DNA of 63,557 nucleotides, counting the filler, from Octopus bimaculoides (lineage: Eukaryota): the NCBI RefSeq assembly GCF_001194135.2. It is 5 parts of 5 records of this genome, joined end to end, with 100 filler letters (N's around TTAATTAATTAA, not from the genome) between each part and the next. Parts side by side here need not be neighbours in the genome. Positions count along the whole stretch, not along the records: positions 1 to 10,598 come from NC_068987.1; positions 10,699 to 23,080 come from NC_068981.1; positions 23,181 to 38,910 come from NC_068984.1; positions 39,011 to 53,370 come from NC_069007.1; 1 more part is not named here. One strand, 5' to 3'. The position numbers and the translations under genes were made by a program. Positions 3,305 to 39,829 of the stretch are shown here, in pieces. Positions within the stretch are counted from its first letter, which is position 1; every line of letters begins with the position of its first letter. The notes beneath the pieces were generated by a model, which was not told the origin of the DNA, ran no database searches, and saw only the letters and a program-made list of their open reading frames with translations.

Positions 3305-3368
3305 TTTAACTGTCTCTCGTTCCCGTTCATCGGACCCGATGAACGGGAACGTGAAACTCAGAGTTAAA
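3305..3368. ncRNA. Head-to-head pair of hammerhead-like cores forming a fold-back (PLE-terminus-like)
   Basis: Perfect 16-bp arms CGTTCCCGTTCATCGG-ac-CCGATGAACGGGAACG (3318-3351). The plus strand reads CCGATGA-ACG GGAA CGT-GAAAC T CAG A GT T. Stem I is not properly formed. Confidence 0.45.
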
Positions 3369-3846
3369 GTCTTTTGTTATATTTCTGCTGCTTTTAAATA
3401 AAGTATATATATATATATGTATATATATATACTCCGGAAATGATTTTAAGGATAAGGGAAACAATCTCACTAGGTTAAGCATAGTAAGCACATTTTATAC
3501 ATTACATCTTGTTACATCTTGTTGATGTGATGGCGATGATGATGATGATGATGATGACGAGGAGGAGGAGGAGGAGGATGCCGACGACGACGACGATGGT
3601 GATAATCCTTCAAATCTTTCTGTACTCTCGTTTACAAATATATGTTCTCGTCTCAATGTCAGAAATGAAAATGAACTACTTTGACATTATTTGTTTATAC
3701 CTCAGTTTTGTAATTCAACTTCCACCCTACTCAATTATAAACTACCAATATTACAAACTGTCGATTCAGTGTACTATGCTTATCCTCATCATTTTGTTGT
3801 AGTGGTATTATCGCTATTAATAGTAGTAGTAGTAGTAGTAGTAAAA

Positions 3847-4075
3847 GCACGTGGCCTCGTGTCTCAAGATTGCGGTTTCGATTCCCGGAACGGGTTGTAG
3901 CGTTGTTGTTCTTGGGCAAAGCAACTTCACGTTGCTCTGCGATTACTTCCACACTTCTGACACGTAGCACACCCGGCACCTCTACAGGCAATTTCGGTCT
4001 GATGTAGGAAGTGAACTCATGTACAGTACAAACGTTGGATCACTATAAACAAATAATCTGTACGGGCCGTTCAGC
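3847..4075 (+). mobile_element. Degenerate tRNA-headed SINE fragment
   Basis: B-box-like GGTTTCGATTCCC followed by TTGGGCAAAGCAACTT, as in the other SINE heads here. Confidence 0.55.
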
Positions 4076-4536
4076 ATGAAATTGTGACAGCCTCAACTCA
4101 ACTGTCGTTTATGAAAGGAAAATCCAGAAAAATAGTGGTAGTAGCAGTTCACGACGAAACCACTGTAACGGAGTTAACAAACTACCAACCAAAAGTGAAT
4201 GTCAAAGATGTATAAATGAATGAATTTATATAGTCTGTAACTACACACATACACACACAAACACCCTATCGAACACACATACACACATACACCTGCCCAC
4301 CCACACATTTACAATGACGCACAAACAAAAGAAAATAGTCACACATTTGTGTATCATATTTCAATGTCGCTATTGACCCTTCGTCTCCTTCAACATTAAA
4401 TCAAGTATACAGACATGCGCACACATACATACGTATGTATATGTGGGCGTGCATGCATACATACACACCCGCATACATACATACATACATACATACATAT
4501 ATGCGTCATCATCTATCTATCTATCTATCTATCTCA

Positions 4537-4846
4537 CCAGTAGAGTGATCAAACTCAGCCAAACATGGGCTGAGAGAAAGTTATCTCTAAAAGGCCGGGC
4601 GGAGGTGGCTAATGTGTATATCGCATCAGTCATCGATTACCGCCTGACCGTCGTGCCTTGTCCCGATGCCACCATCACGAAACTAGAACGCATACTTTTC
4701 CGCTTTCTGTGGAAGGGTGGCGTTCCGATGGTGAGGCGATCCATTTGCTGTCAACAACCGTTACGTGGAGGACTGGGGATGCCGTGGTTAATGATGCGCA
4801 GACATGCGCTGAGACTGCGGCATCTCTGGAACTTCATTGACGACGG
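4537..4846 (+). mobile_element. L1/Tx1-clade LINE ORF2 fragment (C-terminal to the RT core), cut by an assembly gap
   Basis: WAERKLSLKGRAEVANVYIASV...LERILFRFLWKGGVPMVRRSICC...RGGLGMP matches the W..R.LS..GR / F.FLW / GGLG.P pattern of L1/Tx1 ORF2. Confidence 0.85.
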
Positions 4847-38400: not shown

Positions 38401-39079
38401 TTTTGATTATACCATACCGTGTATTTGTTATATTTACTTGACGCAGAGTCGGCGTTCATTACTCTTTATGGAGTATCATTTTACCTGCTACCCAAGCTCA
38501 GACATTTTTCTACTGAAACGTTTTGCAGAACACTATGTTTCATATAGCGGCGATAGAAGGCTTTCTTTTGGAATGTTGTGTGTCCCGTGCAGCAACTATA
38601 TACTTGCCATATTGCGGAAACTAAAAATAAGAAGCATTAGGACGAATGAATGTCAATTCAGCACAACATTCCATGTATAGGGGATTAGATATTGTTGGAA
38701 AAACTGGCAGATACATACATATAAATGTGTGTGAGTATACATATATATATATCATATATATAGATGTATATTTATGAATATATATGTGTGTATATATATA
38801 TATATGTATATATATGAATATATGTATATACATATATACATATATATATGCATATATATGCATATATATGAATATATATATATATATGTATATATATATA
38901 TATGCATATANNNNNNNNNNNNNNNNNNNNNNNNNNNNNNNNNNNNNNNNNNNNTTAATTAATTAANNNNNNNNNNNNNNNNNNNNNNNNNNNNNNNNNN
39001 NNNNNNNNNNTATATATATATATATATATATATATATATATATGCGCATCAACATATATAATGTTTAGATATATATATA

Positions 39080-39565
39080 TGAACAGGAAAAACTATCCAT
39101 GTATTGTAGAATAATCTGTCACCGACCAGCCATGAGAACCGAACTCACATCCCTGTCATTACGGATCAGGTGCTTTACCTTTAAACCATCTGGTGCTTTA
39201 ACTTCAAGCCTAACTGTCCAGTGACGAATTGTCCTGTAATTTTAGGATTTATAAATCTAGGTTTATAAGACGTCAAACATTACATTCAACTTATCACGAA
39301 AGTACACAAACAAAGTTTGTTTCAGAAACGTTGAAATATATTGAAATATAGAGATAAGGAAATAATTTCTTCTCAAACTCAGATTAGGAAAGAATTCATT
39401 TTCAAAAGCTAGATTTATAAATCCTAAAATTGCAGAACAATCTGTTACTGGGCAGTTTAGCTTCAAGGTAAAGCACTTGACGCATAATCATAGAGAGGTG
39501 AGTTCGAGTCTCATGGCTGGCCACTGACAGCTTTTTTGAAATATATGGATAGATTATCCTGTTCA
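39080..39565. mobile_element. Fold-back element: two long imperfect inverted arms, each with an outward-facing tRNA-like unit
   Basis: Arms 39080-39260 and 39409-39565 are reverse complements by eye, with many mismatches. Right arm 39450-39523 folds tRNA-like (GTGAG-TTCGAGT-CTCAT T arm, CGCATAA loop). Confidence 0.75.
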
Positions 39566-39799
39566 TGCTATTATAATAACATTATCCTTCGTTTGAGAAT
39601 AGATTATTTCCTGATATTTATCTTTCAATACATCACAGCGCTTCTAAAGCAAACTTTGTATATTTTTATCGTAAGCTGACTATATATATATATATATAAC
39701 TAAATGTAGAAAATACAGGATGAAACAAATGTATTCAGTTAGACGTACACAATAAATATATACCAAGTTAACGCACAGTGAAATTTTAAGTAAGAGAAG

Positions 39800-39829
39800 A
39801 CAGAACATTTCAAGCGCTTCGTCGGAAGG
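39800..39829 (-). ncRNA. Degenerate hammerhead-like motif (CCGACGA core) in a PLE-tail-like segment
   Basis: CCGACGA-AGCGCTT-GAAAT GT T. Stem I is absent and GAAAC reads GAAAT. Confidence 0.3.

Follow-up and report, generated by a model that had tools for sequence, protein, structure and literature searches.

Does a hammerhead core that carries C instead of the canonical U at position 4 record the decay of individual copies, or can it be the regular state of a repeat family? The window analysed here, a stretch of 63,557 nucleotides of Octopus bimaculoides DNA, raises this question through four CCGANGA words, at 3336 and 13512 on the plus strand and at 10807 and 39825 on the minus strand. A first-pass annotation had read them as four hammerhead motifs on different stems, and all four words are located at these positions. 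Complete hammerhead folds are seen at 13512 and 10807, whereas the motif at 3336 is broken and that at 39825 is attributed to chance.

Animal-type in character, the window is rich in AT and in microsatellites and contains 26 N gaps. At 10599-10698, 23081-23180, 38911-39010, and 53371-53470 it consists of 44 N, a 12-nt spacer, and 44 N, which is scaffolding and not biology; the spacer is TTAATTAATTAA in the two gaps read, and one gap starts 65 nt past the 10807 motif. An abundant interspersed SINE-like repeat (1153-1637, 25641-26077, 29809-30240, 34975-35417, 51313-52081, and others) is presumably an octopus-type SINE. A minus-strand frame at 10330-10600 ends in CFSHGQLYVGCSRVG...IVYNEVL and is taken by us to be the end of a Helitron/PIF1-type helicase, and the segments at 4500-4846 (plus strand), 12900-13110 (minus), and 21494-23045 (minus) are assumed to be non-LTR retrotransposon protein fragments. 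A MITE-like inverted repeat at 50486-50934 has 151-nt arms that are 80% complementary and lie 147 nt apart.

In terms of frequency, the CCGANGA word is not enriched (13 occurrences in the window versus 10 expected), and it is followed by GAAA 6–45 nt downstream in five cases, compared with 2.3 ± 1.5 in 300 shuffles. Since about two such pairs are expected by chance, the word alone is insufficient evidence for a hammerhead. A type I descriptor in which position 4 was left free returns only two sites in the window, 13512 on the plus strand and 10807 on the minus strand, and both carry C4. Block shuffles give 0.135 descriptor matches each under relaxed limits and none in 200 under strict limits, the latter having been chosen after the motifs were seen. 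The Rfam hammerhead models match neither the whole window nor two 141-nt pieces of it, and neither the 13512 nor the 10807 fold is better than those of shuffled sequences.

The motifs at 13512, 10807, and 3336 all keep C3, G5, A6, G8, A9, G12, A13, A14, A15.1, U16.1, and H17; canonical U4 is absent from all three, each of which has C4. The CUGANGAH core consensus of the minimal hammerheads of Penelope-like elements (PLEs) is thus unmatched by these motifs, whose core reads CCGANGA. Each motif has a short palindromic stem III able to pair between copies (ACTCCGAGT, ACAGCTGT, and ACTCAGAGT), with inter-copy duplexes predicted at −7.4 to −8.9 kcal/mol. Homology between the stems or flanks of the motifs is not detectable, as for every pair 11 or more of 200 shuffles score as high, and a multiple alignment of six motifs is uninformative.

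The best of the C4 motifs lies in a repeat with the following layout.

13443..13607, plus strand: a member of a high-copy family of short repeats, with the best C4 hammerhead inside it
13498..13575, plus strand: type I hammerhead fold with C4 (descriptor and stem pairing)
13498-13511/13563-13575: stem I, 9 bp with one C-A mismatch, a 1-nt bulge, and 4 bp
13512-13518: core CCGACGA, with C4 at 13513
13519: position 10.1, A in the window copy and G in the family, facing C13549
13520-13524/13544-13548: stem II, with a structured insert
13550-13553: GAAA
13553-13561: stem III palindrome ACTC-C-GAGT
13562: predicted cut, after GUA

The repeat is preceded by a T-run, and many other copies are followed by (CA)n/(TA)n; loose ends of the family fall at 13443, 13603, and 13607. 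In the window copy, the hammerhead fold lies 3.6 kcal/mol above the minimum-energy fold. On the opposite strand, 170 nt beyond the motif and just past an (ATT)n run, a 93-nt RT/EN-linker piece (13735-13827, minus strand) is 77% identical to 55028-55122 of a broken PLE.

The interval 13440-13660 is present in runs of four organisms (shares of at least 0.24), and one run per organism was used: the large DNA-type runs X1, X5, and X14 and a small fourth run, X16, which we guess to be RNA. At an 80% likeness threshold, outside which any U4 sister families less than 80% alike would fall, the matching contigs number 1244 in X1, 1224 in X5, 840 in X14, and 28 in X16. With 840–1244 contigs per DNA-type run, the 13512 family is dispersed and multi-copy. 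The variant figures rest on the 40 variant rows listed, with 64 further rows outside this listing, and are fractions of depth summed over contigs, not of copy number: C4 (13513) makes up 81–89% of the depth in the three DNA-type runs, where T at this site accounts for 14.6, 10.8, and 19.2%; in X16, T reaches 23%. Eight other CpG cytosines of the family are changed to T in 5.7–17.8, 3.0–19.5, and 7.2–24.4% of the depth (means of 9.4, 9.5, and 14.9%), and the rate at C4 is exceeded at one, two, and three of these eight sites in the three large runs. The mirror CpG change, G5 to A, accounts for 7.6–10.2% of the depth; changes of C3 reach only 1.2–2.1%, and single non-CpG changes (13512, 13555, and 13574) about 0.5–2%.

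Because the U4 minority matches decay at the other CpG sites of the family, the reads identify C4 as the family state of the 13512 repeat and the U4 minority (11–19%) as mostly CpG decay. A T-to-C change would create a CpG, opposite to the main direction of change. The family may also contain a small U4 subfamily. The first-pass annotation had argued that C4 is unlikely to be random decay, and this is supported: C4 is the majority letter of the family in four organisms and recurs in two motifs with unrelated stems. The opposite pattern, U4 dominance with sporadic C4, which it had named as the outcome that would count against its proposal, is not what the 13512 family displays. Its further observation of an unpaired A after A9 in the two best motifs is correct for the window copies and does not extend to a shared trait, as 13519 is G in 95.3–95.9% of the depth in the three DNA-type runs and forms the canonical G10.1-C11.1 pair. 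Stems I, II, and III are paired beside the core in the majority sequence of the family.

The reads have two further features. Among the joints listed, 12 of 15 change strand, and many of these connect a point within 13496-13521 to one within 13554-13571, close to the predicted cut. The depth in X1 about doubles, from 44,000 at the core to 85,000 at GAAA and stem III. The doubling and the strand-changing joints may reflect truncated inverted copies or a sister family that shares the 3′ half.

The second complete motif is on the minus strand.

10763..10811, minus strand: type I hammerhead fold with C4 (descriptor and stem pairing)
10811-10808/10766-10763: stem I, GTCT/AGAC
10807-10801: core CCGATGA, followed by A10800 facing A10779
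Stem II: GGGAAG/CTTCCC, 6 bp
10778-10775: GAAA
10775-10768: stem III palindrome ACAGCTGT
10767: predicted cut, after GUA

Its stem II has an A-A mismatch at the base. A scan with a 10807-type pattern returned 61 metagenome and 77 viral loci, and none of the 138 has both stem I and stem II. Two metagenome contigs (L030, position 1501, minus strand; L034, position 1501, plus strand) combine a U4 core and stem II with the stem III of 10807, ACAGCTGT; in both, stem I fails at the first pair. Family-specific patterns gave a single viral match (L264, with C4 and without stems), none in prokaryote genomes, and none in viral contigs, and no full-length element of any C4 family was recovered by the pattern scans of metagenome, viral, and prokaryote sequences.

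The third C4 motif is incomplete and adjoins an inverted copy of itself.

3336..3371, plus strand: broken C4 hammerhead, core CCGATGA, 3-bp stem II ACG/CGT
3353-3356: GAAA
3356-3364: stem III ACTC-A-GAGT
3363-3365: GUU
3302..3333, minus strand: inverted partial copy of 3336-3371, head to head, joined 2 nt before C3

No stem I adjoins the core at 3336. The inverted repeat 3302-3371 folds at −35.9 kcal/mol (z −5.6) into a hairpin that sequesters this core, and the motif is best explained as a truncated copy that is dead and has undergone inverted duplication. In its head-to-head arrangement, the pair resembles truncated PLE copies that have been described in inverted orientation (PMC8557442). 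A type III reading of 3336 was rejected, as the stem I hairpin closing on the core is absent. The fourth word was likewise rejected as a hammerhead: its stem II does not exceed 2 bp, nor does its stem I, whichever triplet is chosen.

39799..39825, minus strand: CCGACGA and GAAA without hammerhead stems, treated as chance

At the level of sequence, the C4 variant is real for the 13512 family, and it probably occurs in two further families, those of 10807 and 3336.

The window also contains two decayed hammerheads with U4 and remnants of PLE coding sequence.

57780..57854, minus strand: decayed hammerhead with U4, core CTGATAA at 57839, G8 changed
56792..57067, minus strand: GIY-YIG endonuclease remnant (translation; atlas score 0.94)
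54006..54044, minus strand: minimal hammerhead in an advanced state of decay, with U4 (core CTATTAA at 54039) and stem II GAGC/GCTC
56204-53920, minus strand: broken PLE of RT plus GIY-YIG type with a (TA)n end (RT atlas score 0.97)

The 57839 motif has the layout of 13512, a 4-bp proximal stem I with a distal stem, together with a 5-bp stem II that includes G10.1-C11.1, a 21-nt insert, stem III ACCGGT, and GUA; the similarity of the two sequences is not significant (11 of 200 shuffles reach it). It sits 770 nt upstream of the GIY-YIG remnant, which by eye looks like Hydra-clade PLE endonucleases, and no RT is seen between the two (56792-57854). The 54039 motif, found by eye and not returned by the core-plus-GAAA scan, lies near the 3′ end of the broken element, which we take to be Neptune-like. 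Pfam gives no RT or GIY-YIG match for any of the four remnant pieces, and the endonuclease remnant has no homologue at E 0.001 among longer proteins. Both motifs beside PLE coding remnants carry U4, as read at 57839 and 54039; in either, the U may be ancestral or may have arisen by CpG decay. No PLE ORF was found in the window beside 10807 or 3336, and none of the C4 motifs there is joined to an ORF for RT or endonuclease.

The likeness of the C4 motifs to published PLE hammerheads is closest for the Hydra clade. All 34 hammerhead rows available from File S2 of Craig et al. 2021 (PMC8557442), 26 of them Hydra-clade, have U4, as do 56 of 56 PLE minimal hammerhead motifs, with C3 or U3, in Fig. 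S3 of Cervera and De la Pena 2014 (PMC4209133); CUGANGA was required by the searches behind both lists. The published Hydra-1_Obim has U4 as well (PMC8557442); with the U4 remnants beside PLE coding pieces in the window, this makes C4 a family-specific state. Among the 26 Hydra-clade rows, stem III reads ACTC-n-GAGT five times and ACAG..CTGT four times, the base of stem II is a 1x1 mismatch in 15 and a G-C pair in the remainder, and the clade prefers (TA)n insertion (PMC8557442). The octopus motifs are similarly of type I, with ACTC-n-GAGT at 13512 and 3336 and ACAG..CTGT at 10807 (by eye), either a G-C pair or a 1x1 mismatch where stem II begins, and (TA)n ends in the 13512 family; the stem I of Penelope-15_HM, a Hydra-clade element (ttaatag/ctattaa), is close to that of 13512. 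The two groups differ in that the mismatch is U-U or U-C in the Hydra clade and A-A at 10807, that the stem II insert is longer in the C4 motifs, and that all Hydra-clade rows have U4. Hydra-clade elements also encode an RT with RWK and DKT motifs and, at its C-terminus, a GIY-YIG domain that lacks CCHH; no RT-EN ORF was found with the C4 motifs of the window.

With PLE minimal hammerheads in general, the C4 motifs share a short palindromic stem III, a proximal stem I of 4–5 bp, a larger stem II, a U-rich 5′ flank, mostly solitary dispersed copies, and predicted dimer action (PMC4209133). However, the 13512 family lacks the single bulged base that usually separates 9 from 10.1, and the core variant reported there is U3-A8, not C4 (PMC4209133). 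Inverted joints and, in the 13512 family, (TA)n ends are PLE-like features around the C4 motifs. Because their stem III sequences, stem II base, and (TA)n match the Hydra clade, the C4 motifs are, through this indirect link, most likely terminal-repeat hammerheads of Hydra-like PLEs, and at 13512 C4 probably represents a genuine variant that such elements carry.

The first-pass annotation had proposed a lineage-specific variant ribozyme class, and neither part of this description survives. C4 occurs in a viroid (PMC3088659) and among phage hammerheads, and only one core letter of a known class is altered; the C4 motifs are thus no new ribozyme class. The natural viroid U4C hammerhead is much slower in vitro and still infectious (cited in PMC3088659). 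Its core change is identical to that of 13512, and its activity has been measured; it is a viroid variant, whereas in the octopus motif C4 is the letter that predominates in a genomic repeat family. Viral contigs scanned with a single fixed stem II yielded at least 121 distinct matches, with C4 in 11 among the matches listed; 8 of 107 pass when stems are checked leniently, and complete-looking folds are those of L197 and L260. L197, L260, L170, and L244 are C4 phage hammerheads with long, well-paired stems. They share the CCGANGA core and intact stems with the octopus motifs and differ in a stable long stem III (monomer type), in their origin from prokaryotic viruses, and in that C4 is a minority state. 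A 2026 survey used CYGANGA as its descriptor and reports C/T degeneracy at position 4 (PMC13481778). In the literature covered, no C4-majority core is described for a PLE or an animal repeat family; Lunse et al. 2017, which lies outside this scope, could contain such rows. The available portions of PMC10085705, PMC3376415, PMC6962438, and bioRxiv 10.64898/2026.07.22.740005 make no mention of a C4-majority family.

The following account is the one that we favor, with real but limited confidence: 13512 and 10807 are C4 type I folds that likely serve as terminal-repeat ribozymes of PLEs, probably of the Hydra clade, and that would be slow cutters, active in dimeric form only. The minimal hammerheads of PLEs are known not to cleave as monomers and to cleave at a low level as multimers (PMC4209133; reviewed in PMC6765202). 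In hammerhead catalysis, G12 is the base and the G8 2′-OH the acid (PMC6155905), and G12, G8, and the GUA triplet are kept in both motifs. When two copies occur in one transcript, their stem III palindromes would pair between copies to form a dimer, in which G12 and G8 would act as base and acid and the cut would follow GUA (13562 and 10767); such cleavage would trim multimeric PLE RNA. U4 contacts the A6-N7 phosphate (PMC3088659), so C4 should weaken this contact and slow the reaction, at a rate that may have been tolerated while the elements multiplied. After insertion, 11–19% of the copies would drift to canonical U4 because C4-G5 is a CpG. The pairing kept around a C4 core by three unrelated stem sets (13512, 10807, and 3336) is consistent with this account. 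Against activity, single and double mutants of the CUGA region, except the C3-G8 swap, are all low in the scan of one type III hammerhead (PMC9901934). Naiad PLEs proliferate without canonical hammerheads (PMC8557442), so that copy number is no proof of function.

The same two observations, the low activity of CUGA-region mutants (PMC9901934) and the high copy number of hammerhead-less Naiads (PMC8557442), lend weight to the notion that these are PLE-derived folds that no longer cut usefully, in which drift fixed C4 in one or more master copies, themselves short and non-autonomous, and recent descent or another role, e.g., recognition by the PLE protein, preserved the stems. We regard this as unlikely, yet as deserving serious weight: U4C is considerably slower in vitro (cited in PMC3088659), the 13512 family looks short, with about 165 nt between T-run and microsatellite, and Perreault et al. 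rejected core-mutant repeat matches mostly as cryptic mutants (PMC3088659). It is harder to reconcile with the retention of all other core letters and the cleavage triplet in three unrelated stem sets, with changes of C3 in only 1.2–2.1% of the depth, and with the recurrence of C4 in complete-looking phage folds.

That 13512 alone is a true C4 family, with C4 at 10807 and 3336 being a private T-to-C change in copies of U4 families, is improbable. The failure of the pattern scans to find relatives and the presence of U4 motifs in the same window would fit; however, non-CpG changes reach only 0.5–2% of the depth, which makes a private T-to-C change at both sites unlikely, and we infer that two such changes at position 4 would coincide about 1 in 2500 times or more rarely if copy ages are similar. 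Least credible by far is a chance origin of all four motifs as look-alikes in AT-rich repeat DNA. The lack of enrichment of the 7-mer, the roughly two core-plus-GAAA pairs expected, and the lack of an Rfam match agree with it and describe 39825 well, but the absence of a strict match from 200 shuffles, stem III sequences identical to those of published PLE hammerheads (PMC8557442), and a high-copy 13512 family across organisms speak against it. For 13512 and 10807, a chance origin is refuted by the shuffles, the family reads, and the stem III identity.

Returning to C4 motifs as slow PLE ribozymes, a broader version can be put forward tentatively, as somewhat doubtful: a Hydra-clade PLE sub-lineage may run on active C4 hammerheads, in several families with hundreds to thousands of copies per genome that CUGANGA descriptors have missed. 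Some PLEs considered hammerhead-less may then hide C4, and CpG decay would turn a tenth to a fifth of the copies into U4 ribozymes. A C4-majority family would have been invisible to the surveys of PLE hammerheads, in which CUGANGA was a requirement, and to one large survey that excluded every core change. In the 13512 family, C4 and U4 occur naturally on shared stems and can be compared directly. If the C4 family does not cut, it would show clearly that a PLE can keep its hammerhead fold in the absence of catalysis and would bear on what PLE hammerhead motifs do; if it does cut, U4 would be dispensable in an animal retroelement, and census numbers would be too low.
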